64,000 nt of DNA from Eledone cirrhosa (GCA_964016885.1 OZ024766.1:15004001-15068000); one strand, 5' to 3'; shown: positions 1-56,391, counted from the first letter of the stretch. Program-made: numbers and translations. The notes: generated by a model from the letters alone, not told the origin.

Positions 1-505
1 GCCTCCCTTTTCCGCTTCGTGACGCTGTGATATTCCTCAGTCTAGGACTGCTGGAATTTCAAATTTGGCGGTCATTATGATGCGTGAAGGGACGACTTAG
101 CTGACACGAAAAATAACTGCGGTAAGAAATGTTTTCTTATATCAATGTTTGAAGGGCATCCACTGATGATTTATAAGTGCCCACCTGCATATGTTCTTAC
201 AGGAAAATATGTAGGCTTCTACATAAACAAGAAACATTCTCCCAACTTGTAGAAAACTTATAATGAAACAATTGTTTGGAAAGAGAGATATATTTTAATT
301 TTAATTATATCTCATATAAAATAATACAACTGGCTTTCCACAAAATACATATAGTTAGCACCCCAAACACAAAATTGGGATTATACTAAGGTATATCCTA
401 ATGTTTGTTGAGTGAGATGGTAGCCAGTCAGAGTTTAGCTTAAAGCTTTCTCTGTTACTGTATTAAATATATGTATATATATATATATATATGTATCTAT
501 ATATA

Positions 506-3340: not shown

Positions 3341-3376
<36 letters not shown>

Positions 3377-3380
<4 letters not shown>

Positions 3381-6360
3381 CTATATAATTATTGCAGGCG
3401 ACCCAAACGGTCACGTTGGACAACATTGTGACGGCTATGATGAAATCCATGGAGGCTATGGGTTTGGTACTAGAAATGAGGAAGGCTCCAGAATCCTGGA
3501 ATTCTGTGACGCAAATAACCTAACAATCTGTAACACTAACTTCAAAAAACGAGACAATCACTTGATCACCTACAGATCAGGGGAACATACCAGCCAGGTA
3601 GATTATATCCTTACCAGAAGACGTGACAGAGTGACTGTTGTAAACACTAAATCCCTCCCCCATGAAGAATGCACCTCCCAACATAGACTGATAATTAGCG
3701 ACCTAATAGTCAGGACGAGACGTACTAGACAACAGAAGAGGACTATCCTCAGGAGAAAAATATGGAAGCTAAAGGACCCCACAGCCAAAAATAAATTTCA
3801 AAGCATATTACTTGATGCTTTCGACAGTAAGGAAGAGCAATTAGAATCGTACAAGGTAGAGGAACAGTGGGAATTCCTGAAAGCAAACCTGCTGATGGCG
3901 GCAGACGAAGTCTGTGGCTGGAGCAGGCCTGTAGGCAGGAGGAGAGTAACATGGTGGTGGAACAGTAAGGTGGAGGAGTCAATTAAGGCCAAAAAACAAG
4001 CTTGGAAAGTATGGCGGGATGGGGGAAGCAGAGAAGACTATCAAGTGGCCAGGAGGGAAGCTAGGAGACAAGTATACTTTGCAAGAAGGGAAGCAGAGGA
4101 AAGAAAGTTCAAGCATGTTCTATAACGCGAGGACCAAAAACGTGAGGTGTTCAGGATTGCTAGGCAATGTGTCAAGGAAAACAGTGATATTGTTGGGGAG
4201 AAGTGTGTACTTAATGATGACGGCGTACTTGCCATCACCGACGCTGATAAGAAGGTAGCTTGGAAGTGTCACTATGAAAGGCTACTAAATGAGGAGAATA
4301 AATGGGAGAAAGACAGTCTCCCCCACATCGAGCCAATAGAGGGACTAGCAGTGTTAGTCGAGGGTAGTATAATAAGTAAGGCAATCAAAGATATGAAGAC
4401 GGGTAAGGCGGCTGGGCCTTCGGAAATAGTTGCCGAGATGCTGAAGGCATCTGGTACGGTGGGACACACCATGGTCACCCGGATAGTCAACCAAGTCATA
4501 CAGAATGGGGTTGTTCCGAAGGACTGGCGTAGCAGCATCATCGTTAACTGTTATAAGGGTAAAGGAGATGCCCTAGATAGGAGTAACTATAGAGGCATTA
4601 AATTAATCGACCAGGTCATGAAGGTCATGAAATGCAGTTCGGGTTTGTGTCAGGAAAAAGTACCACAGACGCTCTTTTCATTGTACGACAACTACAGGAG
4701 AAGTACCTAGCTAAAAGTAAAACCCTATACTTAGCTTTCGTCGACTTGGAGAAAGCCTTCGACAGAGTCCCCCGTTCCATTATCTGGTGGGCTCTTAGAA
4801 AACTAGGTGTCGATGAATGGCTTGTGAGAGCTATACAAGCCATGTATAAAGAAACAGTGAGCAAGGTTAGAATTAACAACGAATATAGTGAAGAGTTTAG
4901 TGTAAAAGTTGGTGTACATCAGGGCTCTGTTCTTAGCCCCCTACTATTTATTATTGCCCTCCAGGATCTAACAGTGGAGTTCAAGACCGGCTGCCCGTGG
5001 GAACTCTTTTACGCAGATGATCTAACGCTCATAGCTGAATCAATGGCCGAGCTAGAGAAGAAATTCCAAACATGGAAGCATGGCCTAGAATCAAAAGGCC
5101 TTAAAATTAACCTGGCTAAGACTAAAGTTCTAGTTTGTAAGAAAGAAAATAAGGCGGCGGTCCCCTCCGGGAAGTGGCCATGCTCAGTGTGTAGGAAAGG
5201 CGTAGGTAGAAACTCCATTTTGTGTCCCAAATGCAAAGTATGGGTGCATAAAAGATGTAGTGGGATCACAGGTAAGCTAACTAAGAACATAGATTTTACA
5301 TGTGGCCGGTGTTCTGGGGCAATAAGTAGCAGCAAGTGCCCACAAAATAATAGCCCTTTCAACTGCGCAGAGGGTTCTATAGAAATAGTGGACAGCTTCC
5401 GTTACCTGGGTGACAAAATCAGCAGTGGGGGAGGGTGCTCTGAAAGTACAGTAGCTAGAGTCAGAACTGGGTGGAAAAAGTTCAGTGAGCTTATACCGCT
5501 ATTAGCCGCTAAAGGGTTCTCCCTAAAAATGAAAGGCAGGTTGTACGATGCCTGCATACGAACAGCAATGTTGCATGGCAGTGAGACCTGGGCATTGTGT
5601 GCAGAGGATATACGCAGACTAGAGAGCAACGAAGCTTGCATGATCCGCTGGATGTGTAATAGTAATATACGTGAACGGCAAAGCATAAACGAACTAAGGG
5701 AAACATTAGAAATAAGAGGGATCAGATGTTGTTTATTCGAGAGAAGGCTACATTGGTATGGTCACGTGATGCGCATGAAAGTTGATAGCTGTATAACAAA
5801 GTGCAGGGCAATAAAGATAGACGGTAGCCACGGAATAGGCAGACCCAGAAAAACCTGGGACGAGCTGATAAATTCCGACCTCACACACTTACACCTCACC
5901 AAGACAATGTCACTGGACCGAGACCTTTGGCGGTACTCAGTAATAGAGAAGACCCCGCCTTACCTAAATACAAAGTAAAACCTACTACAGTCAGTAGGCA
6001 TCTCTAACAAAATACACCCCCGTCCCACCACCCCCACCCCATCCACACCGCCCCTTTCAATGTAAAGTTATGTTGGTGCCACAACATCCAGCCCGAAACA
6101 AATGAGGTCGTGTAGGTGTCACGTCAAAAAACACACAGTCCACGCTGTAATGTGGCCGTGTAGGCAACACGGTAAAAACCTCCCAGCCCCACACTGTAAA
6201 TGTGGTTGTTGTTAGGAAGGGCATCCAGCTGTAGAAAACCCGCCAGGCAGTCCTATGCGAGCAAGATAACCACTCTTGCCTCAAGTGGGAAAACCCTCCG
6301 TCCAAACCCATGCAAGCGTGGAACACGGACGTTAAACGATGATGATGATGATGATGATGA

Positions 6361-6364
<4 letters not shown>
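3377..6364 (+). mobile_element. RTE-clade LINE with PHD finger in RT (family B), 5'-truncated copy
   Basis: Nearly collinear with 24116-27093. Stop at 4123-4125 and a 46-bp deletion at 4627/4628. RT motifs FVDLEKAFDRV, GVHQGSVLSP, YADDL. Ends in a (GAT)n tail followed by (TA)n. Confidence 0.93.
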
Positions 6365-6825
<461 letters not shown>

Positions 6826-8970: not shown

Positions 8971-9076
<106 letters not shown>

Positions 9077-9204
9077 ATTATATAGAACAATAAAATATGG
9101 CACCAGATGTTCAACCCAAGACCTTATGATTGAGAACAGCACACCTGTAACCTCTAAGCTATATATCTTCACACAGACTTTCTGATAAAGACAGAAGTAC
9201 CCAC

Positions 9205-9342
9205 CTGACTGATAGTTGTCTCCCCTGAAACCAGCTGCACATCCAACACTAGAACACACCCCAGATTTAATGTCGCAATGATCGTTGTCAGCACAGTGGC
9301 ACAAATACTGACAGTTCAAGCCAAAATAACCCTTTTTACATT
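9205..9342 (-). CDS. EGF/laminin-EGF-like exon of a MEGF10/11- or SCARF-like multi-EGF protein
   Basis: 138 bp, phase 1-1, poly-T-cag acceptor, gtgggt donor. Encodes ECKKGYFGLNCQYLCHCADNDHCDIKSGVCSSVGCAAGFRGDNYQS. Confidence 0.85.
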
Positions 9343-9467
9343 CTGAAAAAAAAAAAAAAAAGAAAATAGAATTATATACACAACATATATATAAAATTAT
9401 ACACAATAACACATATATACAATTATACACAGCTATAACATACATATACACAATTATACATAACTAT

Positions 9468-13096: not shown

Positions 13097-14499
13097 AGAT
13101 CGCGATGATCGCGAATGACCCACTTCCTTGAGAGTAACAATATGCTGAACTCCAACCAGCATGGATTCCGTAATGGAAGGGATTGCCTGACGCAACTACT
13201 GCATCACTTTGATGACATTTTGAGAGCCTTGGGAGAGGGTTCCAACACTGATGTTATCTACCTTGATTTCAGCAAGGCCTTTGACAGGGTTGATCATAAC
13301 ATTCTACTGAGAAAGCTGTCCAATATTGGTGTCACTGGAAAGCTGCTGCAGTGGATCAAGAGCTTCCTGTCAAACAGAACCCAACATGTTGTAGTTGAGG
13401 GAGTCAAATCAAGCCCAGCCAAAGTCAGTAGTGGAGTCCCACAAGGCACTGTGTTGGGCCCACTTCTCTTCATCATCTATATTAATGACATCACTGACAT
13501 CATCAAACACAGCAACATTAAAATTTTCGCTGATGATTCCAAGCTCCAAAAGGTCATCAATGGCGTGGATGACCGGATAAGCCTTCAGTCAGACCTACTG
13601 GCTGTTACCCAATGGGCAGAAAAGAACAACATGTTACTGAACGAAGACAAATTCGAACTGATCCACTTTGGAAAAGAGGATGCTCTGAAACTCCCGTACT
13701 CCCTTCCCTCCGGGGAAACTCTCGTGGCATCTAACAACATCAGAGACTTGGGAGTAACCGTGGACAGCAACATAAGCTGGACCACGCATATAAGCAGCAA
13801 AGTTGACATGGCCCGCAGAATGTGTTCCTGGATCCTCAGAACCTTCCAGTCGAGAGATTCCCGCACCATTATCCTTCTCTTCTCTACTTTCGCCCGACCA
13901 CACCTTGAATACTGTTGTCCACTGTGGTCTCCCCACACGAAACAAAGTATCATGAAACTTGAAGCTCCTCAAAGGGCAATCACGAAAAAGATAGATGGCA
14001 TGTCAGACCTTGACTACTGGGGTCGATTGGAAAACCTGAAACTTTACTCACTCCAACGTCGCCGTGAGCGTTATATTATCTGCATGATGTGGAAAATGTT
14101 CCATCATCACTGCCCAAATGATGTTGGCATCGCCTTCAAGATACACCCAAGGCTTGGGCCCCGTGCTATCCGTCCCATTCAAAAATCTAAATCGCAACTC
14201 ATAACAACAATACGGCACAATTATTTCACCTCAATCGGCCCTGCTCTCTTCAACATCACACCAGGACACGTCAAAACAGAAACTGACCACACAAAATTCA
14301 AGAAGTCTTTGGACAAATTCCTCCAAGTAATCCCGGACAAACCACCCACACCCGGATATGTCTCCGCAAACAGTAATTCTCTTCTCGAATGGGCCATGGT
14401 GCCCAAATCCTGAATTGAAAGACTTCGCCAGGTGGTGCTATTAAGTTAGACATGGCCTGGGCCAATACTGGCCAAAACATTTCAAAGTTATTCAAAGTT
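13097..14499 (+). mobile_element. CR1-like LINE, 5'-truncated copy 1
   Basis: Almost identical to 17476-18870; RT ORF 13115-14413; TA-rich flanks. Confidence 0.93.
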
Positions 14500-15011
14500 A
14501 TATATATACATGTATATATATATATATATATACATACATGTATATACATATATACACGTATGTATATATATACATGTATGTATATATATATACATATATA
14601 CATGTATATATATATATATACATGTAAATATATACATGTATATACATATATACATGTATATATATATATATATATATACATACATGTATATATATATATA
14701 CATGTATATATATATATGTATATATATACATACATGTATATATATATATACATGTATATATATATTTGAAAACTCGATCTGAACAACAGATTCAAAATAA
14801 ATTAAAGCAAATCGAAATTGCTTTTAAATTAATCAATAAACATTTGGATAAACTACGGTGTGTTTTCTCTTCGAATGCTGTCCAGCAGCAGCAACAACAA
14901 CAACAGTAGCTACAACGGCAACAACAACAACAGCTACAACAACAACATCAACAACAGCAACAACAACAACAACGACAACAACAGTGTGAACCACTCCTTG
15001 ATTCATCAACA

Positions 15012-15776
15012 ATGGCCGATCTACTAAATGAAACTATTGACCCCCCAGTAGCCTCTGTCTCACAGCATGAAACGCCACATCCTTTCTCTAGCCCAGCAGT
15101 CCAATCATCACCACTGCCAACATCTCTGCCTACTACTACTACTACTACTACAACATTTTTGTCTACTGCTATGTCAAGGAATTTACCTTCTAATACCAGA
15201 ACAAGAACTCTCCCTCCCACAGTCCACAAAGGTCGTCAAATCCTACCCAAACCATCATCTACACCTCTCACAACACACACACCCACATACCCACCCACTC
15301 GAAACCCCATCATTTGCCGCTACTCTCTACGCTATAGAATATGTACGGATAGTGGCTGCAAATTCACCCATTTACCTAGGACAAAACGATCTATCCCCAC
15401 AAACAGCCACCACCATAATACATACTCTAATTTAACACCAACACAACCACCAATAACTCAAACAAGGAATCCACAAATCTGCGGCTTTTCCCTGCGAGAC
15501 AGATTGTGTTTAGACCGGGATTGTCCCTTTACCCATCTCCCGGGGACCCGTCGGACAAATGAAAATAAAATTAAAAATAAAAGCAAAAACAAAAACCATA
15601 ACCTACATAAAAATAACCACTACCACAGTCACCAACAGTCTTCTAAACAGGAAACTTCTTCCTCTTTTTTAGCCATAATGAATCTGGCAAAAGAACTGGA
15701 AAAAAACATTCGAGCTATCACCCAGCACCACCCTCCACTATCACCCCACTGCACAAACTCCCATTGCTGCCATTAA
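15012..15776 (+). CDS. LINE ORF1 with two CCCH zinc fingers
   Basis: 254 aa; CRYSLRYRICTDSGCKFTH and CGFSLRDRLCLDRDCPFTH (C-x8-C-x4-C-x3-H). Confidence 0.8.
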   Translation: MADLLNETIDPPVASVSQHETPHPFSSPAVQSSPLPTSLPTTTTTTTTFLSTAMSRNLPSNTRTRTLPPTVHKGRQILPKPSSTPLTTHTPTYPPTRNPIICRYSLRYRICTDSGCKFTHLPRTKRSIPTNSHHHNTYSNLTPTQPPITQTRNPQICGFSLRDRLCLDRDCPFTHLPGTRRTNENKIKNKSKNKNHNLHKNNHYHSHQQSSKQETSSSFLAIMNLAKELEKNIRAITQHHPPLSPHCTNSHCCH

Positions 15777-18700
15777 CAAACAAACAAATTAACAACACAC
15801 CAAAACAATTAAAACCATCCACTCTCGCCTCTACATTTTTGCTTAACGCCCAAGGCATCAGCCCTTCCACCAATACTCAAAAATGGAAGATCAAATTCCT
15901 GGAGGACTGGATTGATGTCCATCCAAACTACATCCCTTTCTTCGTCCTCACTGAAACCCATCTCAGTAACCTCCACTTGGAAGCCGAGGTGAAAGTGAAA
16001 AATGTCAAAGCCATCCGTGCTGATCGCGCTGGCAGAAGAAAGGGCGGAACTGCCATTTATGTCCATAATTCTTTCTCAATAGAGGCTATGAACATATTCA
16101 CTAATGGATACTGTGAGGCAGTCACTGTATTCAGTCAAACCAACAACCTATTAGTAGTTGGGCTCTATAGGCCACCCCAAACGCCTGTACCATGCTTCAA
16201 GGAATGCCTCAACAGCATAAAGTGTTTCATCCAAGAGTGTCACCCTGACAACATCTTAATGATGGGGGACTTCAACCTCCCCGGAGTTGACTGGTCCACA
16301 AACAGCCTGCCACCAGGTTCTTCTGCCTCAACCTCTGACAGGGAAGCTGTGGAATCGCTTCTTGACTTCATGGATGATTTCTTCCTATCCCAACTGGTGC
16401 TCGAACCAACGAGGTGCCACAAAAACGTCCTAGACTTAATTTTCAGCAATCACACTGACAATATCCACAATATTGCAGTGGAGAAAACTCTACTCTCTGA
16501 TCATGACATGGTTCTCTGTGATCTGAGATTCCACCGTCCAATATACAAACCCAATGTCATCTCTCCTGTCCATCCGTTTGACGCTATGGATTTCCACAAT
16601 GCAAACTGGGAAGCGATCAGTCATGATCTTGCACATGTCGACTGGTCCTTCACGCACACTCATACACCCACTAACATCAAAAAGTCCTGGCAGACATTTG
16701 TGGACACTGTTACAAACATATGTGCTAAACACACCCCATTAAGAACTATAAACAAATCTAAGAGCAGAATCCCTAGAAATAGAAAAACGCTCATCAGAAA
16801 AATTAAGAGAACGAACAAAAAAATCAACAAGCTGAAATACTGTCAGCAGCAACACATCAACTTGACTGCCATTTCATCACTAGAGATTAAAAAACATAAC
16901 CTCCAAAACAACATAATGTCCCTCATCAACAATCAGAGAAGAGCTGAAGAGGCCTGGGCCATTGAGAAGATCAAACTCAATCCCAAAGTGTTCTTTTCAT
17001 TTGCAAAAAAACACAAAATCACTGGCTCTACTGTTGGCCCTCTAATTGATGAAAATGGCACTCTTCAAGACAATGCTAAAACCATGGGTGAGATACTGCA
17101 GAAACAATACTGCTCTGTTTTCAGCAATCCTGATATGGCCGATCTGGGCTGTATCGGCGATGTTACTCCCCATTACACCTTATCGGACATAACGTTTGGC
17201 GCCCCTGATGTCTTGGCGGCAATAAAGGAAATCAAGCATAATTCAGCAGTAGGTCCCGATAGGTTCCCTGCTTGTGTCTTGAAGGCGTGTCAACACCAAC
17301 TTGCATCTCCTCTTGCCAATCTGTGGCGGAACTCACTGGATGCTGGATATGTGCCAGAAAACCTTCTATCCCAGTCTGTTGTCCCAGTTTTCAAAAAGGG
17401 AAACAAATCCCTTGCCGTGAATTACCGTCCAATCTCACTCACCTCTCATATCATTAAGGTATTTGAGAGAGTGGTGAGATCGCGAATGACCCACTTCCTT
17501 GAGAGTAACAATATGCTGAACTCCAACCAGCATGGATTCCGTAATGGAAGGGATTGCCTGACGCAGCTACTGCATCACTTTGATGACATTTTGAGAGCCT
17601 TGGGAGAGGGTTCCAACACTGATGTTATCTACCTTGATTTCAGCAAGGCCTTTGACAGGGTTGATCATAACATTCTACTGAGAAAGCTGTCCAATATTGG
17701 TGTCACTGGAAAGCTGCTGCAGTGGATCAAGAGCTTCCTGTCAAACAGAACCCAACATGTTGTAGTTGAGGTAGTCAAATCAAGCCCAGCCAAAGTCAGT
17801 AGTGGGGTCCCACAAGGCACTGTGTTGGGCCCACTTCTCTTCATCATCTATATTAATGACATCACTGACATCATCAAACACAGCAACATTAAAATTTTCG
17901 CTGATGATTCCAAGCTCCAAAAGGTCATCAATGGCGTGGATGACCGGATAGGCCTTCAGTCAGACCTACTGGCTGTTACCCAATGGGCAGAAAAGAACAA
18001 CATGTTACTGAACGAAGACAAATTCGAACTGATCCACTTTGGAAAAGAGGATGCTCTGAAACTCCCGTACTCCCTTCCCTCCGGGGAAACTCTCGTGACA
18101 TCTAACAACATCAGAGACTTGGGAGTAACCGTGGACAGCAACATAAGCTGGACCACGCATATAAGCAGCAAAGTTGACATGGCCCGCAGAATGTGTTCCT
18201 GGATCCTCAGAACCTTCCAGTCGAGAGATTCCCGCACCATTATCCTTCTCTTCTCTACTTTTGCCCGACCACACCTTGAATACTGTTGTCCACTGTGGTC
18301 TCCCCACACGAAACAAAGTATCATGAAACTTGAAGCTCCTCAAAGGGCAATCACGAAAAAGATAGATGGCATGTCAGACCTTGACTACTGGGGTCGATTA
18401 GAAAACCTGAAACTTTACTCACTCCAACATCGCCGTGAGCGTTATATTATCTGCATGATGTGGAAAATGTTCCATCATCACTGCCCAAATGATGTTGGCA
18501 TCGCCTTCAAGATACACCCAAGGCTTGGGCCCCGTGCTATCCGTCCCATTCAAAAATCTAAATCGCAACTCATAACAACAATACGGCACAATTATTTCAC
18601 CTCAATCGGCCCTGCTCTCTTCAACATCACACCAGGACACGTCAAAACAGAAACTGACCACACAAAATTCAAGAAGTCTTTGGACAAATTCCTCCAAGTA

Positions 18701-18784
18701 ATCCCGGACAAACCACCCACACCCGGATATGTCTCCGCAAACAGTAATTCTCTTCTCGAATGGGCCATGGTGCCCAAATCCTGA
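15764..18784 (+). CDS. LINE ORF2: APE endonuclease plus reverse transcriptase
   Basis: 1006 aa uninterrupted; LTETHL, MGDFN, LDLIF, SDH; [33 protein letters not shown]. No ATG start. Confidence 0.95.
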
Positions 18785-20353: not shown

Positions 20354-20453
20354 TACATGTATATATATATATGTATATATATAATCAAGGTTTAGCAAAT
20401 AATGAAAACGTTTCAAAATAAATTTTAAAAAATTAACTTTACTTACTATAGTT

Positions 20454-20537
20454 ACCTTTACCGAATCGGTTTCGAATCTCAAAAATAAACGGAGACCATA
20501 CGGCCTTCGTTGCAAAGAAAGATTCTCGTCAGAAGGT
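20454..20537 (-). ncRNA. Type I hammerhead ribozyme, intact core with extended stem II
   Basis: Minus strand: acctt CTGACGA gaatctt...gagattc GAAA ccg-att-cgg TA aaggt. All three stems pair; GUA cleavage site at 20459/20458. Confidence 0.88.
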
Positions 20538-20587
20538 TCTTTATACATGTATATATATACATGTATATATATATATATATATATATG

Positions 20588-21206
20588 TCTCTACTTTTGC
20601 CCGACCACACCTTGAATACTGTTGTCCACTGTGGTCTCCCCAAACGAAACAAAGTATCATGAAACTTGAAGCTCTCCAAAGGGCAATCACGAAAAAGATA
20701 GATGGCATGTCAGACCTTGACTACTGGGGTCGACTAGAAAAGCTGAAACTTTACTCACTCCAACGTCGCCGTGAGCGTTATATTATCTGCATGATGTGGA
20801 AAATGTTCCATCATCACTGCCCAAATGATGTTGGCATCACCTTCAAAATACACCCAAGGCTTGGGCCCCATGCTATCCGTCCCAAACAAAAATCTAAATC
20901 GCAACTCATAACAACAATACGGCACAATTATTTCACCTCAATTGGCCCTGCTCTCTTCAACATCACACCAGGACACGTCAGTACAGAAACTGACCACACA
21001 AAATTCAAGAAGTCTTTGGACAAATTCCTCCAAGTAATCCTGGACAAACCACCCACACCCGGATATGTCTCCGCAAACAGTAATTCTCTTCTCGAATGGG
21101 CCATGGTGCCCAAATCCTGAATTGAAAGACTTCGCCAGGTGGTGCTATTAAGTTAGACATGGCCTGGGCCAATACTGGCCAAAACATTTCAAAGTTATTC
21201 AAAGTT
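20588..21206 (+). mobile_element. CR1-like LINE, 5'-truncated copy 3
   Basis: Near-identical to 18252-18870 with the same 3' terminus. Confidence 0.92.
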
Positions 21207-22609: not shown

Positions 22610-23005
22610 CATGTATATATATATATATATATGGAGGCACATGGCTTAGTGGTTTGAGCATTGGCCTTGCCATCGAAAGGTTGTGAGTTCAATTCTCAGA
22701 CTGGATGATGTGTTGTTTCCTTGAGCAAGACACTTTATTTCACATTGCTCCAGTTTACTCAGCTGCAGAAATGAGATGATAGGACTGGGGTCCCTATCAT
22801 TGCCCTGCAAAGTGGTCGTGGAGGTGCCACGGCAAAAAAGCACCCAGCACTCACTGTAAATGAGGTTGGTGTTAGGAAGGGCATCCAGCTGTAGAAATCA
22901 AGCCAGAATCAGTTCCCGTCCCACCCTTGCAAGCAGGGTAAAAGCGGACGTAAAATGAATACATATACATGTATATATATATACATGTATATATATATAT
23001 ACATG

Positions 23006-23189: not shown

Positions 23190-26100
23190 TGTCTAATTAC
23201 GGGGGACTAAACCCCAGAATTTGTCTACTATTATTGATGGTCGCTTGTTCAGTTTTCTTCTACGAAATGTAACGTACATATTTCATTTTCTTCTCAATTC
23301 TCCACATTCGGTTCATTCATCTATATATCTTACAATCCCCCAATCGTATTCAAAATTGGCTTTCTATAATTCTGTTCTGTCTCACCGTTGTTCTAAAAAT
23401 AATTCTGCTCCTCGCAAACTACCCCTCCCGCCCCCACTCTCCACCTTATTATTTGGACCAATCACAAGTAAACGACCTATGCTAGCACCTCTGGTTGCTT
23501 TTTCGATATGATGGATGAACTAGGGAATTTCTGGAGAGTCAGAAGAATCTGGACACCCGAAGACAATGCAAAAGATAACGACAAATTCACCTCATGCTGC
23601 CAGACGAAAGGGCAAAGCCCCACCCTCTTTGTTGCAGCCGCGGATGGCCAACATAACCCCAACCCCATCAACCTCACCCCTCCCTGCACCCCACCCACCA
23701 AACGCAATCCAAAACTTCACAGTTGGTACCATGAATGTAGGGACCTTAAAAGGCCGCTCAAACGAGGTTGTAGAAATGCTTGAACGTAAGGAGGTTGATG
23801 TCTGCTGCATCCAAGAGACCAGGTGGAGGGGCGGGTCTGCTAGATTCATTGTGGGTAAAAAACGATGCTATAAGTTTTTCTGGGTGGGCAATGACAATGG
23901 GCTGGGTGGGGTAGGATTCATGTTAGCAGAAAAATGGGTGGATAAGATAATAGAGGTAAATAGAGTAAACGACAGAATAATTAAAATAAGACTTGTTCTA
24001 AATAGAACTACTGTGACGATAATATCTGCGTACGCGCTTCAATCCGGACTGCCTGGCGCTATAAAAGACACTTTCTATGAGACACTGATGCTCGCTACCT
24101 CCCAAATAACTGACAGTGACTATATAATTATTGCTGGCGACCTAAATGGTCACGTTGGACAACATTGTGACGGCTATGATGAAATCCATGGAGGCTATGG
24201 GTTTGGTACTAGAAATGAGGAAGGCTCCAGAATCCTGGAATTCTGTGACGCAAATAACCTAACAATCTGTAACACTAACTTCAAAAAACGAGACAATCAC
24301 TTGATCACCTACAGATCAGGGGAACATACCAGCCAGGTAGATTATATCCTTACCACAAGACGTGACAGAGTGACTGTTGTAAACACTAAATCCCTCCCCC
24401 ATGAAGAATGCACCTCCCAACATAGACTGATAATTAGCGACCTCATAGTCAGGACGAGATGTACTCGACAGCAGAAGAGGACTATCCTCAGGAGAAAAAT
24501 ATGGAAGCTAAAGGACCCCACAGCCAGAAATAAATTTCAAAGCATATTACTTGATGCTTTCGACAGTAAGGAAGAGCATTTAGAGTCGTACAATATAGAG
24601 GAACAGTGGGAATTCCTGAAAGCAAACCTGCTGATGGCGGCAGACGAAGTCTGTGGCCGGAGCAGGCCTATAGGCAGGAGGAGAGTAACATGGTGGTGGG
24701 ACAGTAAGGTGGAGGAGTCGATTAAGGCCAAAAAGCAGGCTTGGAAAGTATGGCGGGATGGGGGAAGTAGAGAAGACTATCAAGTGGCCAGGAGGGAAGC
24801 TAGGAGACAAGTGTACTTCGCAAGAAGGGAAGCAGAGGAAAGAAAGTTCAACCATGTTCTACAACGCGAGGACCAAAAACGTGAGGTGTTCAGGATTGCT
24901 AGACAATGTGTCAAGGAAAACCGTGATATTGTTGGGGAGAAGTGTGTACTTAATGTTGATGGTGTACTTGCCATCACTGACGCTGATAAGAAGGTCGCAT
25001 GGAAGTGTCACTACGAGAGGCTACTAAATGAGGAGAATAAATGGGAGAAGGATAGTCTCCCCCAGATCGATCCAATAGAGGGACCAGCAATGTTAGTTGA
25101 AGGTAGTATAATAAGTAAGGCAATCAAAGATATGAAGACGCGTAAGGCGGCTGGGCCTTCGGAAATAGTTGCTGAGATGCTGAAGGCCTCTGGAATGGTG
25201 GGACACACCATGGTCACCCAGATAGTAAACCAAGTCATACAGAATGGGGTTGTTCCGAAGGACTGGCGTAGCAGCATCATCATTAACTGTTACAAGGGTA
25301 AAGGAGACGCCCTAGATAGGAGTAACTATAGAGGCATTAAATTAATCGACCAGGTCATGAAGGTCACGGAAAAAGTAATAGTGCAACTAATCAGAGAGAG
25401 AATCGATCTAGATGAAATGCAATTCGGGTTTGTGTCAGGCAAAAGTACCACAGACGCTTTTTTCATTGTACGACAACTACAGGAGAAGTACCTAGCTAAA
25501 AGTAAACCCCTATACTTAGCCTTTGTCGACTTGGAGAAAGACTTCGACAGAGTCCCCCGTTCCATTATCTGGTGGGCTCTTAGAAAACTAGGTGTTGATG
25601 AATGGCTTGTGAGAGCTATACCAGCCATGTATAAAGAAAAAGTCAGCAAGGTTAGAATTAACAACGAATATAGTAAAGAGTTTAGCATAAAAGTGGGTGT
25701 TCATCAGGGCTCCGTTCTTAGTCCCCTACTATTTATTATTGCCCTTCAGGCTATAACAGTGGAGTTCAAGACCGGCTGCCCATGGGAACTCCTATACGCA
25801 GATGATCTAACGCTCATAGCTGAATCAATGGCCGAGCTAGAGAAAAAATTCCAAACATGGAAGCACGGCCTAGAATCAAAAGGCCTTAAAATTAACCTAG
25901 CTAAGACTAAAGTTCTAGTTTGTAGGAAAGAAAATAAGGCGCCGGTCCCTTCCGGGAAATGGCCATGCTCAGTGTGTAGGAAAGGCGTAGGTAGAAACTC
26001 CCTTTTATGTCCCAAATGCAAAGTATGGGTGCATAAAAGATGTAGTGGGATCACAGGTAAGCTAACTAAGAACACAGATTTTACATGTGGCCGGTGCTCT

Positions 26101-27093
26101 GGTGCAATAAGTAGCAGCAAGTGCCCACAAAATACTAGCTCTTTCAATTGCGCAGAGAGTTCTATAGAAATAGTGGACAGCTTCCGTTACCTGGGTGACA
26201 AAATCAGCAGTGGGGGAGGGTGCTCTGAAAGTACAGTAGCTAGAGTCAGAACTAGAGAGGAACGAAGCTTGCATGCTCCACTGGATGTGTAATAGTAATA
26301 TACGTGAACAGCAAAGCATAAAGGAACTAAGGAAAAAATTAGAAATAAGAGGGATCAGATGTTGTTTACTCGAGAGAAGGCTACGTTGGTATGGTCACGT
26401 GATGCGCATGAAAGACGACAGCTGTATAGCAAAGTGCACGGCAATAAAGATAGATGGTAGCCACGGAGTAGGCAGACCCAGAAAAACCTGGGACGAGCTG
26501 ATAAGTTCCGACCTCACACACTTACACCTCTCCAAGACAATGTCACTGGACCGAGACCTTTGGCGGTACTCAGTAATAGAGAAGACCCACCTTACCTAAA
26601 TACAAAGTAAAACCCGCCACAGTCAGTAGGCATCTCTAACAAAATACACCCCTGTCCCACCACCCCCACTCCATCCACACCGCCCCTTTCAATGTAAAGT
26701 TATGTTGGTGCCACAACATCCAGGCCGAAACAAATGAGATCGTGTAGGTGTCACGACAAAAAAACACACAGTCCACGCTGTAATGTGGCCGTGTAGGCAA
26801 CACGGTAAAAACCTCCCAGCCCCACACTGTAAATGTGGTTGGTGTTAGGAAGGGCATCCGCTGTAGAAAACCCGCCAGACAGTCCACGCTGTAATGTGGC
26901 CGTGTAGGAAAACACGGTAAAAACTTCACAGCCCCACACTGTAAATGTGGTTGGTGTTAGGAAGGGCATCCAACTGTAGAAAACCCGCCAGACAGTCCTG
27001 TGCGAGCAAGACAACCACTCTTGCCTCAAGTGGGAAAACTCCCGTCCAAACCCATGCAAGCGTGGACCATGGACGTTAAACGATGATGATGAT
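23190..27093 (+). mobile_element. RTE-clade LINE with PHD finger in RT (family B), near full length
   Basis: Single ORF 23566-26292 (908 aa; EN, RT, PHD), broken only by a 152-bp deletion at about 26253. C-terminus in 26273-26599; duplicated 3' UTR segment; (GAT)n tail. Confidence 0.93.
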
Positions 27094-27101
27094 ATATATA
27101 T

Positions 27102-27945
27102 TTGCGCGTACCATCCTGACTAGGACATAGTCCAAAAGATGCCATTCCTTAGATGCAGGATGCATCCATGTGGTCTTGAATTTGTTCTTTTGTTGGAACA
27201 TGGTGTTGGTAACACACAGATCCAGCTCCTCACACATCTGCAGCAGGAGCATACCATTGTTGTTACACTTTCCCACCCCATGCCTTCCGATTACATTCCA
27301 TGTGTTAAAATCCCTACCCACTCTAGCATTAAAGTCACCAAGCACGATGACTTTGTCTGCCTGAGGGATATTTCTTAAAACACCTTTCAAGGCATGGTAG
27401 AAGGACACTTTTTCTTCATCGACAGAATTCATAGTTGGAGCATACACACTCACCAGGGTCGCATATCTTCCTTTGTCCAGCGGAACTCTCATGTACATAA
27501 GACGCTCACTAATCCCTACTGGGAATTCTACTAATTTATTCACAAGTACAGTCTTAACAGCAAATCCTACCCCAGCCTCTCTTCTGGTTCCTTCATCTCT
27601 TCCTTTCCAGAAGAATGTATATTCTCCACAAAATTCTGTAAGATGACCATCTCCAGCTAACCTCGTCTCAGATAAAGCCACGATGTCAAGATCGTAACGT
27701 CGAAGCTCCTTTGCAACAAGAGCGGTCCTTCGTTCAGGACGCTCCAAGGAATCCCTGTCAAGCAGCGTCCGTACGTTCCAGCAGCCAAGACTAAATGCCT
27801 TGTTTGGCTCTATTACAATGGCACGATGACGAGCGGGCCCCGGCTGTGATAACCTGGGGCCCCTGCCCTTATTGCCAATTATCTTTTTTGTTCCAGAACC
27901 TAAATTGCCAATTATCTCTTTTATATTGTTCTGGAACATCATTGA
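27102..27945 (-). mobile_element. BovB-like RTE LINE 5' fragment (APE endonuclease)
   Basis: GCWNVRTLLDR..RPERRTALVAKELRRYDLDIVALSETRL, GDFNARVG, TTWMHP..WHLLDYVLVR. Confidence 0.85.
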
Positions 27946-27989
27946 ATTGGAAGAAGAAAAAAAAAAAAATAATAATAATAGTAACAATA

Positions 27990-28977
27990 ATAATAATGAT
28001 TTCATTTATTAGCCACAAGGGCCGACATGTAGGGGACAATACAAAGACAGGGACAGTGGGGGTTTACAATAAGGTCGAGTAAAAGTGCACAATGGCAAGT
28101 CTAATTTAACAATGAAGATATAAAAATATAAAATAAACTATGCATAAATATAACAAAATAAATTCCCCGATAGGGGGTGGACGACCCTGAACCACCCTGT
28201 GCTTCTAGGGCACCCAGGGAGAGCACCCCTCTCCTCAACTTAGCTAGCCTATAGGCACATGGTCAGAGTAGGGCCATTCACACGGGCCATTCTCGCCACA
28301 TTCACCCACCTTTTAGAAAATGTACTGGGGGGCAGCACTTCTCTCTCCACCCTCACCTTCCTTTCCAGGTGAAACTTGAAGAAGTTGATGAGGGATTGGC
28401 TGAAGAGAAAAGTGTCTGTCTTTAGTCCATTCAACCTGGTCCACCATATAATCTCTTTCTCAACTTCCACCAGACAGAGGAAATGTCCTGCTCTTTCTGA
28501 CCTAAGGAAGGCGGTGGATCGATCTTCACTATGGACTCGGCCGATAGCCGGATTCGTTCCACACGTGACAGTAGCTGTTCGACATAACTCCACAAGTCAG
28601 TAATGCACGGACATTGGACAAGTGCGTGCAGAACGGTTTCGTCGTTCTGTGCGCATCTTGTGCAGGTTCGTCTGACAGCACTTCCGTGCCTGTAGAGTTA
28701 ATCCCGAACCGGCAGTGCCCCCCGGTAGCACTGCCAAGCGAGGGATTTCTGGAAATTGTCCATCGTCCCCGGCTCAAAAGTCCTCCGGTACAGACTGGTC
28801 AGTTCGACTTCGTCGAGGCCCAAAGCTTCTCCGAGTGCGTCATTGCACTTGCCCACCATTAATCCTCTATAGAACTCGAGAGTGGAAGTTCCACTGATCG
28901 CATTGCCCGCTTGGTAGAGGGCAGTGAGTGCCTGGCAACATTCCAGGTGCCAGTCACCCACTCTCGGTCTCTTCTTG
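27990..28977 (-). mobile_element. L1/Tx1-like LINE 3' fragment
   Basis: Frameshifted WQCYRGALPVRD ... C-x2-C..ETVLHALVQC zinc-knuckle region; AATAAA followed by an (ATT)n-like tail. Confidence 0.65.
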
Positions 28978-29317: not shown

Positions 29318-30800
29318 AAGGTAAAGGGGATGCTCTGGAGAGGAGCAATTATAGGGGCATAAAGCTGATGGATCAGGTTATGAAAGTGGCAGAGAGAATA
29401 TTAGCGCAACTGATTAGAGAAAGGGTCAATTTAGATGAGATGCAGTTTGGTTTTGTGCTCTCGGAAAAGTACAACAGATGCCCTCTTCTTAGTGAGGAAA
29501 CTACAAGAGAGGTTCTTAGAGAAGAACAAGCAACTATACTTAGCTTTTGTTGACCTAGAGAAGGCCTTTGATAGGTACCCCGATCTGTCATCTGGTGGTC
29601 CCTAAGGAAACTAGGTGTAGAGGAATGGCTTGTGAGGACAGTGCAAGCTAAGTACAGGGGTGCTGTCAGTAAAGTGAGAATAGGAATGGAGTTTAGTGAG
29701 GAATTGCAGATGCAAGTAGGTGTAAATCAAGGTTCGGTCCTCAGCCCACTCTTGTTCATTATAGTCCTCCATACCATAACAGAGGAGTTTAAGATTGGAT
29801 GCCCATGGCAACTTCTCTATGCTGATGATCTGGTTCTTATAGCATAATCAGTAGAGGAGCTAGAGAATAAATTCTGCCTATGGAAACAGTAGTTGGAATC
29901 AAGAGGCCTGAGAGTGAACATAGCTAATACAAAAGTGTTGATGAGTAGAAAAGAGGACAATACTCTGATTCCATCAGAGAAATGGCCATGTTCGATATGT
30001 AGGAAAGGAACTGGCATAAATTCCATAAAATGCAGATCTTGGGTACACAAGAGATGTAGTGGGATAGTAGGCAAACTAAGAGGTAGGGAAAACTACATAT
30101 GCAGTAGATGTACAGGGACATTTGACAGTAGGAGTCGCAGTGATAGACACATTTTTCAAATACAGGTGGGTTCTATAGAAGTGGTTGATAGCTTCCGGTA
30201 CCTAGGTGATCAGATTAGCATGGGAGGGGGGTGTTCCAAGGCTATAGTCTCCATAATAAAGACGGGTTGGAAGAAGTTTAGGGAGCTGCTTTCTCTGTTG
30301 ACAAAGAAGGGTTTCTCCCTGCATACGAAAGGGCGGTTATATGATGCCTGTGTGAGATGCGCGATGCTGCATGATAGTAAGACATGGGCCGCAACTGCAG
30401 AGGATATGCACGGCTGGAGAGAAATGAAGCAAGCATGCTCTGTTGGATGTGCAATGTCAACGTGTGTGAACGACCAAGCATAGACGAGTTGAGAAAGAAA
30501 CTGGGTATAAGCGGGATAAGTTGGGTGTGCAAGAGAGAAGACTGAGATGGTATGGACATGTGATGCGCATGGAGGATGACCCCTGGGTAAAGAAGTGCCA
30601 AGAAATCCCAGCAGAAGGAAGACGCAGAAGAGGTAGACCACGTAAAACATGGGCGGAGGTGGTGAGAGAAAACCTGAGATCACTGAAATTCACAGAGGAG
30701 ATGACGGAGAACCGTGACAAGTGGAGAGATGCTGTGCTGAATAAGACCTGTCCCATCCTTGCAAGCAGGGAAAAACGGACGTATGATGATGATGATATAT
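29313..30800 (+). mobile_element. RTE-PHD LINE (family C), 5'-truncated, decayed
   Basis: RT motifs with stops; WPCSICRKG...WVHKRC...CSRC; TA flanks. Confidence 0.88.
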
Positions 30801-30984
30801 ATATATATATATATATACTAGTATTCAAGTGTTTAGGGAGAGACCGATAACATTGTTAGAACTCATTGCAGCCTTGAAGAGATGGTTTCAACAAGATTGG
30901 GTGGTGAAAGTTATAGTTTTTGTAGAAGGATCTCATCACATAAGGTTCCTTCAAAGATTCTTCTAGAGTTACAGAGTCATTTAT

Positions 30985-44029: not shown

Positions 44030-45365
44030 CTCATCATCATCATCATCATTTTACATCCTCTTTTCACTGCTTGCAAGGGTGGGATGGGTCCTATTCATCA
44101 TCTCTCCATTTGACATGGTCCTTTGTCATCTACTCTGTGAGCTTCAGCGATCTGAGGTCTGCTCTCACCACCTCTCCCCATATTTTTTGTGGTCTTCATC
44201 TACTGCGTCTTCCTTCCACTGGGATTTCTTGGCACTTCATTACTCAGCAGTCACCCGCCATGCATATCACACATCCATACCAACGCAGTCTTCTCTCCTC
44301 CACGCTACATCTTATCCCTCTTATACACAGTTTTTCTCTCAACTCGTCTATGCTGGGTCATTCACACACATTGACATTGCACATCCAACGGAGCATGCTT
44401 GCTTCATTTCTCTCCGGCCGTCACATTTCCTCTGCAGTTGCTGCCCATTTCTCACTACCATGCAGCATCACACATCTCACACAGCCATCATATAACCGGC
44501 CTTTCGTCTGTAGGGAGAAACCCTTCATTGTCAGCAGAGGAAGCAGCTCCCTAAACTTCTTCCAACTCGTCCTTATTCTAGATACTACGGCCTCGGAACA
44601 CCCTCCTCCCTTACTAATCTGATCACCTAGGTATCAGAAGCTATCAACTACCTCTATAGATCCTACCTGCATTTGAAAAATGTGTCTATCACTGCAATCT
44701 CTGTCAAATTTCCCTGTACATCTACTGCATACGTATTTCTCCCTACCTGTCAGTTTTCCTGCTATCCCACTACATCCCTTGTGTACCCAAGATCTGCATT
44801 GCGTACATTTTATAGAATTTATGCCAACTCCTTTTCTACATATCGAACATGGCGATATCCCTGACAGAATCAGAGTTTGGTCCTCTCTTCTACTTATAAA
44901 CACTTTTGTCTTAGCTAGGTTCCCTCTCAGTCTTCTTGATTCCAACTACTGTTTCCATAGCCAGAATTTATTCTCTAGCTCCTCTACTGATTCTGCTATA
45001 AGAACCAGATCATCAGCATAGAGAAGTTCCCATGGACAGCAAGTCTTAAACTCCTCTGTTATGGCTTGGAGGACTATAATGAACAAGAGCGGACTGAGGA
45101 CCGAACCCTGATGTACACCTACACATATCTGGAATTCCTTACTAAACTCCATTCCTACTCTCACTTTACTGACAGCACCCCTGTACATAACTTGGACTGT
45201 CCTCACAAGCCATTCCCCTACACCTAGTTTCCTTAAGGACCACCAGATGACAGATCGGGGTTCTCTATCAAAGGCCTTCTCTAGGTCAACAAAAGCTAAG
45301 TATAGTGGCTTATTCTTCTCTAAGAACCTGTCTTGTAGTTGTCTCACTAAGCAGAGGGCATCCTT
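44030..45365 (-). mobile_element. RTE-PHD LINE (family C), intronic, decayed
   Basis: RT motifs; CSICRKGVGINSIKCTQCRSWVHKGC...CSRC; (TGA)n tail. Confidence 0.88.
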
Positions 45366-49025: not shown

Positions 49026-49582
49026 ATGAAATAGTAGGATATGTTGTTGTTTAGAGAATTTGGGATGTACATGCAGTGATCCCTATAGTGATTCATACGA
49101 GACAGGGATTTATTTTCATTCATGATGTCTACACCTTGTTTGTTGGTCACCTTCAATTTACTTTGTTAAATGATGTTATATTAAAAATAGTTCTACTAGC
49201 CAGGCAATAGTGAAGATATTTGCCATAATAAATATTGTAATCCATGTGAAATGTGGTAAAAGGGTAGTTTGCAGTGATAGAATTATGTTTAGATAGGAGA
49301 GCCGAGATCATACATCTTTACATTGATCTTGTGTTATTCATTTGAAGTTGTCAGCATTTTACAGAGTGTACTGGGTGTATTTTATTGTGAAAACAGCTCC
49401 ACCACAATTAACAATAATAATAATGATGATTACATCAGTAAGTATATTTATTAAGTTACATTATTAAAAAGACAACTTAACGATGACCCATGGAGGGATT
49501 TTGACATTAATGACTGAATAAAAAACAAACATTATTGAGTAAAAGAAACAAATGTTGATATTCCAGATCATTGTTAACTTAC

Positions 49583-50136
49583 TGTTCAACTGTTTCTCCT
49601 ACAGCTCTGTCACCTTCGTTAGGAACAGGGCTGACATGTGACAACAACTCCACTATTTCAGAGTGATCTCTATCGTTGGCCAGTTGTAGAGCTGAATGAC
49701 CACACTTATTCTTCACATTCACATCTATTGTCGACATTTCTAACAATATTTTCACACACTCTATTGCTTCCATCCCACTTCTACAGGCCCGATGTAGTGG
49801 GGTTTCACCATCAACATTCACAACATTCACATCTATTGTCGACTGTGACAACAACATTTTCACAGCCTCTATCTCTCTCTCACTACAGGCCAGATGTAGT
49901 GGGGTGTTATCATTATCATTCACAACATTCACATCCACTGTTGACAGTGACAATAGCATTTTCACAGCCCCTATCTCTCCCCCACCACTACAGGCCCAGT
50001 GTAGTGGGGTGTCACCGTCACAATCCACAACATTCATATCAGCTCCACAATCTACCAACATTGTCAATATGTCTAAATTCCCGAGATATGCAGCAATATG
50101 TAAAGGTGCTCGATTAAGTTTATTTTGTTGATTGAT
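49583..50136 (-). CDS. Ankyrin-repeat exon (5 repeats)
   Basis: Phase 0-2, ttttcag acceptor and gtaagt donor; APLHIAA, TPLHWAC, TPLHLAC, TPLHRAC, SALQLA. Confidence 0.92.
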
Positions 50137-50489
50137 CTGAAAATGTAAAAATATATTTATATATGGTGGGTGTGAGAGTGAAGGGGAGAGTGTGTAGTAA
50201 GAGAGAGAGAGGGGGAGTGGAGGTATGGGGAGAGAATTATAAACAGACACACACATACACATATTATAAACAGACACACTTAGAAAGCATATTACATACA
50301 TACACGATAGGGGACTGTGATAAAGTATAGAAAACAGTGGACAGTGTTTGCTACACCTGTCTTACTCATACATATAAATGTATACACACATACATATATG
50401 TTTGTGTATGTAATAATTATTTGCTCTAATGAGTCTGTTTATATATGTGTAGATGTGTGTGTATGTAATAATTCATTCAAATATGGAAA

Positions 50490-54741: not shown

Positions 54742-54762
54742 CTGTTAATATATATATATATA

Positions 54763-55735
54763 TCATCATCATTTAACGTCCATCTTCCACGCTAGCATGG
54801 GTTGGACGGTTTTGTTTCACTTAAGGCAAGATTTGTCGGGAGACCGTGTCCTGCTCATACAGAACTGTCCCTGGCAGGTTTTCTATGGCTGGATGCCCTT
54901 CCTAACACCAACCACATTTACAGTGTGGACTGGGAGCCTTTTTACCGTGTCTCCTACATGACCACTTTACAATGTGGACTGGGAGCTCTTTGTCGTGTCA
55001 CCAACATGACCACTTTACAGTGGTCCTCCCATTTCTATGGGAGGACAGAGTAGGGTGTGTGGAGTGGGGTGTATATTGGGTTAAGAGGTACCTACTGACT
55101 GTAGGTTTAAGTTTGTATGCCAGAGAAAGCAGGTCTCCTGTACAACTGCATAGTACCAAAGATCTCGATCCAGTGATATTGTCTTAGAGAGGTTTAAGTG
55201 AACAAGGTCAGTTTTTACAGCTCGTCCCAGGTTTTCCTTGGTCTACCCACTCCGTAGCTTCCATCAATGTTCATTGCCCTGCACTTTTTTATACAGCTGT
55301 TGTCCTCCATACGCATCACATGACCATACCAACACAATCTCCTCTCCAGAACACAACATTTGACACCTCTTATGCTTAGTCTCTCTCTCAATTCGTTTAT
55401 GCTTTGCCATTCGCTCACATTACTATTACACATCCATCGGAGCATGCAAGCTTCATTTCTTTCTAATCTACACAAGCCTTCAACACACGACACCCAAGTC
55501 TCACTACCATGTAACATTGCTCTTCGTATACAAGCATCATACAATCTGCCTATCACTTTTAGAAAAAAGCCTGTTGCCGCCAACAGCGGTATTAGCTCTC
55601 TGAACTTTTTCCATCCCGTTTTAACTCTGGCTACTTCAATTTCAGAGCACCCTCCACTACTGCTGATTTTGTCACCCAGTTAACGGAAAGTGTCTACTAT
55701 TTCTATAGAACCATCTGGGCAGTTGAAATGAGATA
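54763..55735 (-). mobile_element. RTE LINE 3' fragment related to family B
   Basis: ORF 55215-55583 (LYDACIRRAMLHGSETW...WYGHV...GRPRKTW); family B-like 3' UTR. Confidence 0.85.
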
Positions 55736-56391
55736 GAATCCAGTAGTTCTATAGAAATCATCATCATCAGTTTTACGTCCATTCTTCCACACTAGCATGG
55801 GTTAGACAGATTGTCCTGCTGTGGGCGATGTTAGGTCAGGTGACCTTGTCTTGCTCATACGGGAACTGATTTTGGCTTGATTTCTACAGCTGGATGTCCA
55901 TATATATATATATATATATATATATGCAAGTGTATTTTATTAAATGTAACTTAAAATTAAAACCTTCAATGTATGATTTTTGCCTATTAAAAATAATCTA
56001 AAAAAAGGGGACACCATTGCCTATGTGACTCAAACTGACATTTGCCTTATACAGGACATCTTTACTTACCAGTTACAATCGACATATATATATATGGAGG
56101 CATATGGCTTAGTGGTTAGAGCATTGGCCTTGCAATCGAAAGGTTGTGAGTTCAATTCTCAGTGATGTGTTGTTTCCTTGAGCAAGACACTTTATTTCAG
56201 ATTGCTCCAGTTTACTCAGCTGTAGAAATGAGATGATAGGGACTATCATTTTTGCCACAGCAAAAAAGCACCCAGCACTCACTGTAAATCAGGTTGGTGT
56301 AAGGAAGGGCATCCAGCTGTAGAAATCAAGCCAGAATCAGTTCCCGTCCCACCCTTGCAAGCAGGGAAAATGCGGACGTAAAATGAAATGA

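Follow-up and report, generated by a model that had tools for sequence, protein, structure and literature searches.

A PHD finger between reverse transcriptase motifs 6 and 7 of RTE-type LINEs in Eledone cirrhosa and other animals

A 64,000-nt stretch of the Eledone cirrhosa genome (hereafter the window) contains an RTE-type LINE whose reverse transcriptase (RT) is interrupted by a PHD finger, and comparison of homologous proteins indicates that this insert is a conserved, lineage-defining feature of an RTE branch found across several phyla. The C4HC3 finger occupies positions 25966-26097 (+), in frame within the stop-to-stop ORF 23524-26292; it lies 57 aa past YADD and is flanked by KTK (25903-25911) and FRYLG (26182-26196), that is, by RT motifs 6 and 7 (Table 1). 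An earlier note on this DNA, made from the sequence alone, had placed such a peptide between these two motifs and inside an RT, and the translation and the position of the finger bear it out on both counts. Pfam PHD (PF00628) matched the whole focal ORF at 27.2 bits (E 4e-6, cut-off 24) and the finger scored alone at 32.8 bits, and also exceeded its curated cut-off for L034, L078, P0008, P0017, P0130, and P0132. In an AlphaFold model, the finger resembles PHD proteins, with Pygo and TAF3 first. Both checks had been proposed in the note, and the segment is confirmed as a real PHD finger. Its C4HC3 ligands have the spacing of PHD fingers, and from these ligands it would be expected to bind two zinc ions.

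Table 1. Features of the focal PHD-bearing element and of related copies in the window (aa, residues of the focal ORF; L033 and L078, reference copies of families A and B)
Feature	Position	Strand	Evidence or remark
Family A PHD-bearing RTE LINE, near full-length, dead	23342..27093	+	blastn to intact L033, 96-97.5% identity, three pieces
Single long stop-to-stop ORF of 922 aa; 1068-1075 aa in intact copies	23524..26292	+	
APE-type endonuclease domain, aa 69-304	23728..24435	+	Pfam PF03372 and PF14529
RT core up to motif 6, aa 599-799	25318..25920	+	Pfam RVT_1 101 bits
YADD	25795-25806	+	
KTK	25903-25911	+	
Linker 1, predicted flexible	25921..25959	+	pLDDT <50 at model 742-744; colinear with R2Bm 6a loop position
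PHD finger, W813-C858	25960..26097	+	C4HC3 ligands aa 815, 818, 829, 832, 837, 840, 855, 858
Linker 2, variable, predicted flexible	26098..26163	+	25% A-B identity; pLDDT <50 at model 801-806
RT motif 7 (FRYLG), RT fold resumes	26182..26196	+	
Internal thumb-region deletion breakpoint, ~150 nt	26251..26256	+	frameshift
Second family A copy, 5'-truncated, PHD 5181-5312	3376..6569	+	92.7% to L033; Pfam PHD 26.4 bits
Family B copy, decayed, PHD 29989-30111 one Cys short	29318..30817	+	88% to L078
Family B copy, decayed, PHD 44718-44849 with eight ligands	44031..45362	-	87.7% to L078
Related PHD-RTE family, 3' fragment starting just past PHD	54762..55739	-	75.6% to L033

A six-frame scan of the window with the C4HC3 pattern, in which low-complexity and stop-containing matches were skipped, returned three matches: 25966-26097, 5181-5312, and 44718-44849(-). 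The second of these is the repeat of the pattern that the note had reported, and Pfam likewise recognizes it as a PHD. The note had also described a diverged family with conserved ligands, which holds for the match on the minus strand and fails for the copy at 29989-30111, where three residues including one Cys ligand have been lost and the Pfam score (16.2 bits) falls below the cut-off; the ligands are thus not all conserved in this decayed copy. The focal copy has a short 5' UTR, a 3' UTR of ~500 nt, and a (GAT)n tail at 27082-27093. Relative to intact L033, it lacks ~150 nt of the thumb region at ~26256, just past the PHD and motif 7; this deletion shifts the frame, so the copy is dead. In addition, short elements at 26740-27093, 22805-22950, 53360-53520, and 57948-58171 have the 3' UTR core and tail of the LINE, and are probably SINEs or non-autonomous copies mobilised by these LINEs.

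The element consists of one ORF that encodes an APE endonuclease, the RT, the PHD, and the thumb, followed by a (GAT)n tail, which was present in 35 of the 40 family A copies examined. RTE elements are defined by a short tandem-repeat 3' tail, the absence of poly(A), and the absence of a C-terminal CCHC knuckle, and family A agrees with this definition in its tail and in the absence of a C-terminal finger from its Pfam matches. Neither an ORF1 nor a C-terminal zinc finger was detected in families A and B by Pfam and sequence comparison. Among the records compared, none of them a named Repbase reference, the RT groups with those from fish and plants, away from CR1-like and L1/R2 elements; Rex3-like, BovB-like, and RTE-1-like are the labels that we assume for the families compared. 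The pairing of an APE endonuclease with an RT in one ORF, the Pfam matches, and the tree grouping agree with the note's view of a single-ORF RTE-type LINE.

Searching the 3.0-Gb, 1796-contig genome with an RT-PHD query gave 75,969 first-look candidates for family A, and a C-terminal query gave ~152,000 for family B; neither figure is a copy number. The best 150 of the 75,969 family A candidates were scored and have 96-100% identity. Natural family A copies L033, L034, and L035 have uninterrupted frames of 1068-1075 aa, many young family B copies have 1024-aa frames, and a third PHD-bearing family is present among the PHD matches of this genome. By hand count, the four largest contigs take similar shares of the top matches of two element queries (102/150 and 91/150). 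No longer fused protein was found among 99 candidates in a weak search, and Rfam (E up to 0.1) detected no ribozyme in L033, L034, and L078, only sub-threshold hairpin matches in simple repeats. The arrangement of transposable elements seen in the window recurs several times on contig C27 at ~12.9-15.4 Mb, with arrays on C19 and C20, which suggests segmental duplication.

Several other elements were noticed. A BovB-like RTE with C-terminal C2H2 fingers lies at 27076-28005 (-) in the window and at 870-4532 in L074, and its architecture resembles RTE-2_OV; it is very young, with dozens of intact ~1200-aa frames genome-wide and a 3' UTR that consists largely of microsatellites. An older RTE-1-like family (500-3083 (-)) has a longer tandem-repeat tail and ~83,000 first-look candidates. 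An intact, young, high-copy ORF2 of 1045 aa, which we take to be CR1/L2-like, occupies 15647-18784 (+), with further pieces at 13109-14413 and 20452-21120, and the frame upstream of it (14910-15776) contains two short Cys/His repeats. In a different repeat (L116-L121; G000 contigs C15, C14, C3, and C25), a Pro/Ser-rich stretch precedes a basic PHD, which in turn is followed by an RT-leader-like motif; many copies of this repeat are grouped at 19-24 Mb on C25. The window also contains an ankyrin-repeat ORF or exon at 49582-50361 (-) (Pfam Ank_2, 214 bits), a short Cys-rich stretch at 8972-9463 (-) that looks by eye like an EGF-type exon and has no Pfam match at E 0.001, and a fragment at 51697-52158 (+) that resembles a PIF1/Helitron helicase in its motifs.

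A homologue search with aa 730-915 yielded 457 proteins, and in 118 of the 120 homologues listed the C4HC3 pattern stands at a constant distance from YADD. Named hosts among the matches listed are Octopus, Hydractinia, and the catfish Neoarius, the closest named homologue being from Octopus bimaculoides (64%); one match comes from a filarial nematode record and could be contamination. The note, which had reported the insert from a few families of this genome, underestimated its range, as it marks a whole multi-phylum lineage. In an alignment of 120 rows (the window plus 119; one row without YADD was left out), seven zinc-ligand columns are conserved at 120/120 and one at 119/120, at ~50% overall identity and across phyla. 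Non-ligand surface residues P814, G821, V822, G823, N825, S826, I827, W835, K838, S841, G845, and L847 are retained in 76-100%. Synonymous sites between families A and B are saturated; at the protein level, A-B identity is 63% in the PHD, 65% in the endonuclease, 67% in the thumb, and 25% in linker 2. The near-invariant ligand columns and the match between the PHD and the endonuclease and thumb bear out the purifying selection on the finger. Outside RT proteins, the Atlas clusters closest to the finger consist of short PHD or PHD_Pygo fragments from animals, which may be pieces of the same RTE family.

Relatives without the PHD, obtained from a 50%-identity library, delimit the insert. Of 215 proteins with both motifs, 139 match the C4HC3 pattern and have a loop of 85-98 aa from KTK to F.YLG, 68 have a short loop of 25-38 aa, and eight have a long loop with a variant or decayed finger; from the two length classes, the insert is ~64 aa. 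Motif 7 covaries with the insert, reading C..D in 129 long-loop rows versus K..S in 63 short-loop rows, and families A and B have Arg in place of Cys (window 26182-26199). The fish and plant RTEs share with the PHD-bearing elements a single APE+RT ORF, a short tandem-repeat tail, and the lack of a C-terminal zinc knuckle, but between motifs 6 and 7 they have a loop of 25-32 aa instead of one of 85-98 aa with a PHD, and their motif 7 is F-K-YLGS instead of F-C/R-YLGD. We take the fish PHD-less relatives to be Rex3/Expander-like.

The first tree (62 rows, thinned at 68% identity) was built from an alignment that excluded the PHD insert. In it, the 46 PHD rows are monophyletic (99/96); they branch from within fish and plant RTE records and lie away from the BovB-like and RTE-1-like families of this genome. 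Of the relatives that lack the PHD, catfish, Hibiscus, Orobanche, and Capsicum records come closest. When one chimeric sequence or the CR1 sequence was taken out, the long-branch outgroup fell inside the PHD rows. In a mixture-model tree of 34 rows, a single branch (95/98) divides the PHD from the PHD-less ingroup and the root lies weakly among PHD rows; monophyly of the PHD rows was not rejected (AU p 0.26). The clean single gain seen in the first tree is therefore weakened by three further trees that place the outgroup among PHD rows. One event divides the two groups, and this may be a single gain, or an older gain followed by loss in the fish and plant RTEs; both are compatible with the trees. 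A neutral passenger, or a chance Cys-rich insert, might be envisaged from the sister RTEs without PHD and from the trees that permit secondary loss, but the ligands are near-invariant at ~50% overall identity and across phyla, and the constraint on the PHD equals that on the endonuclease. We consider this reading very improbable, and it appears to be largely refuted already.

We found no description of a PHD inside an RTE RT in the full-text literature, Repbase Reports and subscription papers lying beyond the search, so that a curator's note may exist. Nor was one seen in sections of PMC3849965, PMC3905857, PMC9004415, PMC5786205, and PMC5381603. The PHD+RT pairing is already present in automatic annotation, in Pfam lists, in a UniRef name, and in an Atlas cluster named PHD/RT. 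The relevant passages of Metcalfe and Casane (2014; PMC4120745) place the PHDs of CR1/L2 LINEs either in ORF1 or N-terminally, in ORF2 or in an element's only ORF; those passages propose general genome targeting, note no functional study, and call the ORF2 structure highly constrained. The finger described here shares with those elements a LINE-borne PHD with Pygo structures among the best matches (PMC4120745, same passages). Unlike in the CR1/L2 elements, it interrupts the RT of an RTE, and it does not lie upstream of the endonuclease (in ORF1 or at the N-terminus). RTE-2_OV of Octopus vulgaris is also a cephalopod RTE LINE; as described in part of PMC9115989, it has a C2H2 finger and no PHD, and it resembles the BovB-like L074 rather than the PHD-bearing element.

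The structural setting of the finger was examined with an AlphaFold2 model of L033 aa 64-1075 (61 sequences; mean pLDDT 87, pTM 0.80), in which the RT is intact around the finger. The PHD blocks have pLDDT 75-89 and the linkers on either side fall below 50. The modeled endonuclease matches the L1 EN/APE1 fold at Z ~24.5, and the modeled RT matches L1 ORF2p over 556 aligned residues (Z 29.4, rmsd 4.0) and R2Bm over 512 (Z 27.9, rmsd 5.4). The model of the finger has pLDDT 75-87 in its core. Searched alone, the finger returned PHD-containing proteins among the rows listed by Foldseek and VIA, with Z up to 5.3; Foldseek gave no E <0.001 for this small domain. Its top wide fold match is Pygo (Z 5.3, rmsd 4.9, 53 aligned), with TAF3 and ARID5 tied, and the predicted model thus has a PHD fold.

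The closest positional parallel is the 6a loop of R2Bm, residues 672-677 between RT motifs 6 and 7, which, in the sections consulted of PMC10499050, is judged a motif 6-7 insertion unique to R2. It reads upstream target DNA and is required for nicking (parts of PMC10499050 and of 10.1101/2024.11.11.623112). In both cases a non-LTR element has an insertion in the interval from RT motif 6 to motif 7, but that of R2 is a short base-reading loop, and R2 is site-specific and uses a different nuclease, whereas here a folded zinc domain is found in a dispersed APE element. R2-type base-specific upstream contact and site-specific insertion have no counterpart in the 3' junctions, which are diverse and lack a common motif. 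The HMMER alignment to R2Bm stops at query 798 / R2Bm 666, six residues short of the 6a loop. Among the target-DNA contacts named for L1 target-primed reverse transcription in excerpts of PMC7617806 are the thumb, wrist, CTD, and NTE, the motif 6-7 loop not being named there. By analogy with the 6a loop of R2, a restriction-like-endonuclease element, we infer that the PHD loop may face target DNA.

To what the finger might bind, its residues give some indication. We mapped 156 distinct fingers by sequence on the Pygo PHD (structure account in part of PMC2726290), which is also the top PDB sequence match of the finger (E 1.4e-4). At the pocket equivalents, W366 is kept in 152/156, an aromatic residue at Y341 in 148/156, V350 in 146/156, and a small residue (S/A) at A356 in 154/156, and the equivalent of I357 is also kept; by this mapping, the fingers retain four of the five positions that line the K4me2 cavity of Pygo, with an aromatic/hydrophobic cavity and a divider Trp. 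W835 may be retained for folding alone. The finger thus resembles the Pygopus PHD (as described in sections of PMC2726290) in its aromatic-P-C start and in the V, small-residue, I, and W pocket positions, and differs in a shorter loop 1 without the D352 lip, a short loop 2, the lack of an E360 equivalent, and a basic rather than acidic character. The residue after Cys3, equivalent to Pygo E360, is acidic in 7/156 fingers and Asp in none, and loop 1 has no acid in 146/156, so that neither acidic anchor of the H3 N-terminus is present as a rule. In Pygo, E360 is essential for binding and the histone face is acidic (PMC2726290, same sections). Each of the 156 fingers has a net positive charge, from +1 to +11 with a mean of +6.2, and eight full host PHD matches from the same genome have a mean charge of -0.5. 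Asp follows Cys3 in 14 of the 15 host PHD matches shown, which were picked by Pfam score and are thus biased towards the consensus.

These features bear on the reading of the finger as a canonical H3K4me2/3 reader that would draw the element to active promoters in the manner of the RAG2 PHD, which draws the RAG recombinase to such promoters. The best sequence and fold matches (Pygo and TAF3) and the retained cavity positions speak for such a reader, as does the binding of H3K4me3 by RAG2 without an acidic Arg2 pocket (from part of PMC3241642). Against it stand the rarity of an acid after Cys3 when compared with the host PHDs, the missing loop-1 acid, the basic face where Pygo has an acidic one, and flanks that are CpG-poor and not promoter-like (only 1/35 family A flanks exceed a CpG o/e of 0.8); we regard it as improbable. 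For an H3K4me0 reader of the AIRE/BHC80 type, the defining features are an acidic cluster before the first Cys and no aromatic cage (excerpts of PMC3241642); the six residues before Cys1 contain no acid in 62, one in 88, and two in 6 of the 156 fingers, and thus do not form such a cluster. Modeling the PHD together with zinc and the unmodified H3 1-30 of the same genome, with no alignment used, gave a score of 0.00, which speaks neither for nor against binding. Because the acidic anchors are missing, the fingers are basic, and no acidic cluster for unmodified K4 is present, a canonical H3 reader appears unlikely, and these sequences would fit better with a basic finger that binds nucleic acids or nucleosomes and has kept a residual pocket.

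The note had inferred a possible chromatin- or nucleic-acid-reading module that could steer target choice. We propose, at a confidence that falls a little short of an even chance, that the finger is a tethered module that engages target DNA or nucleosomes beside the nick and would bias the place of insertion. Two linkers, both predicted to be flexible, would suspend the PHD between RT motifs 6 and 7; their low confidence in the model and the scant conservation of linker 2 suit a tethered domain better than a packed one. The basic face of the PHD would grip the DNA backbone, a contact that we consider slightly more likely than not, and the retained W/aromatic/V/S pocket might take up a methyl-lysine from the tail of a neighbouring histone, which we consider rather unlikely. 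The fine position of insertion would come from the endonuclease and from (GAT)n/(TA)n microhomology, leaving the element dispersed and not site-specific.

The basic charge of the finger would suit RNA binding equally well. As an RNA-binding module, it would hold the RNA of the element itself, or the RNA:cDNA hybrid, and replace the missing ORF1p chaperone and C-terminal zinc knuckle; the uniformly basic fingers, the absence of ORF1 and of a C-terminal zinc finger from families A and B, and the location on the RT palm together with the covarying motif 7 would agree with this role. It has low probability in our judgment, as close single-ORF PHD-less relatives do without the finger and as the retained hydrophobic pocket and the flank bias are left unexplained. 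The finger could also serve protein interaction or structure, docking a host factor in the way that the Pygo PHD docks BCL9, or packing on and tuning the RT, with no direct chromatin contact. Zinc binding does not explain the invariant KGVGxNSI surface, motif 7 covaries with the insert, and some PHDs bind non-histone proteins (PMC3241642, in part), but the low-confidence linkers and the barely conserved linker 2 point to a tethered domain, and no partner is known; this role, too, seems unlikely.

The proposed tether would account for a further observation, namely that the DNA flanking PHD-bearing copies is poor in CpG. CpG o/e of 3' flanks was computed after masking simple repeats, and flanks with <40 C or G were excluded, as were 5/40 family A rows without tail, 4/40 BovB-like rows without 3' end, and 4/30 rows of the first family B set (three near-duplicates, one without tail). 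At 50-2700 nt, CpG o/e was 0.40 for family A (35/35 flanks) and 0.54 for family B (18/20), compared with 0.67 for the PHD-less BovB-like RTE (34/36) and 0.72 for random sites (19/20); the differences from the BovB-like flanks have uncorrected p values of 3e-6 for A and 0.035 for B. Outside repeat hits, the values were 0.31 (A), 0.43 (B), 0.69 (BovB-like), and 0.73 (random), with p 1e-4 for A and p 0.005 for B against BovB-like in a post hoc, uncorrected test that was picked after the weak family B result had been seen. The first family B set alone gave 0.51 vs 0.58 (p 0.48), pooled 1.4-kb windows of family B against BovB-like p 0.094, and the 2.7-kb family B set against random p 0.10. Family A flanks contain more repeat hits than random DNA (p 0.02). 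A TA repeat adjoins the 3' end in 14/35 family A copies, the junctions being otherwise diverse, and TA-type repeats are also found at the 3' ends of examples from PHD-less families. The deficit of CpG is thus strong for family A and weak for family B; it is a correlation, not attributable to the PHD yet. As only two related PHD families, which have far more in common than the PHD alone, and one PHD-less control family were compared, the flank bias is a lead and not proof of PHD targeting.

Copy ages are alike (0.7%, 0.6%, and 0.4% divergence). Only 4-7% of CpG has been lost within copies, so the flank deficit was not created after insertion. In O. bimaculoides, 5mC marks the bodies of expressed genes (from part of PMC9476566), which together with the CpG-poor flanks suggests a bias towards insertion into gene bodies. 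The further equation of low flank CpG with methylated gene bodies was not supported by CpG decay within copies (low- vs high-CpG flanks: 14/1210 vs 17/1251, p 0.72; 12/1056 vs 8/1001, p 0.50): copies in low-CpG flanks decay no faster, and low CpG is therefore not shown to equal a methylated gene body. The polymorphic RTE of O. bimaculoides, for which the part of PMC9115989 consulted has 74 'intronic' mentions among 211 calls, was compared with the PHD families through its variant positions, which had no consistent offset in any family, and it is not used here. The fullest form of the proposal, in which a hitherto unrecognised RTE lineage of several phyla has a chromatin reader in its polymerase, placed at the loop with which R2 reads DNA, that engages nucleosomes (basic face to DNA, Pygo-like pocket to methyl-lysine) and steers insertions into CpG-depleted, probably transcribed chromatin, is in our estimate rather unlikely.

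The core of LINE ORF2 has been regarded as architecturally fixed, and a folded graft in the motif 6-7 loop departs from that; since the domain has been kept there in molluscs, cnidarians, and fish, the palm evidently tolerates a graft of 60 residues. The function of LINE-borne PHDs has been a standing question since 2003 and can now be tested, because in this lineage the PHD is part of the integrating protein, intact young copies exist, and PHD-less sisters are available for a swap. If the fullest form of the proposal is true, chromodomain integrases and RAG2 would have a counterpart among non-LTR elements, and the loop would offer itself as a place for grafts that retarget gene-insertion tools based on retrotransposons. 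If the PHD steers insertion, it would shape a large share of this 3-Gb genome.
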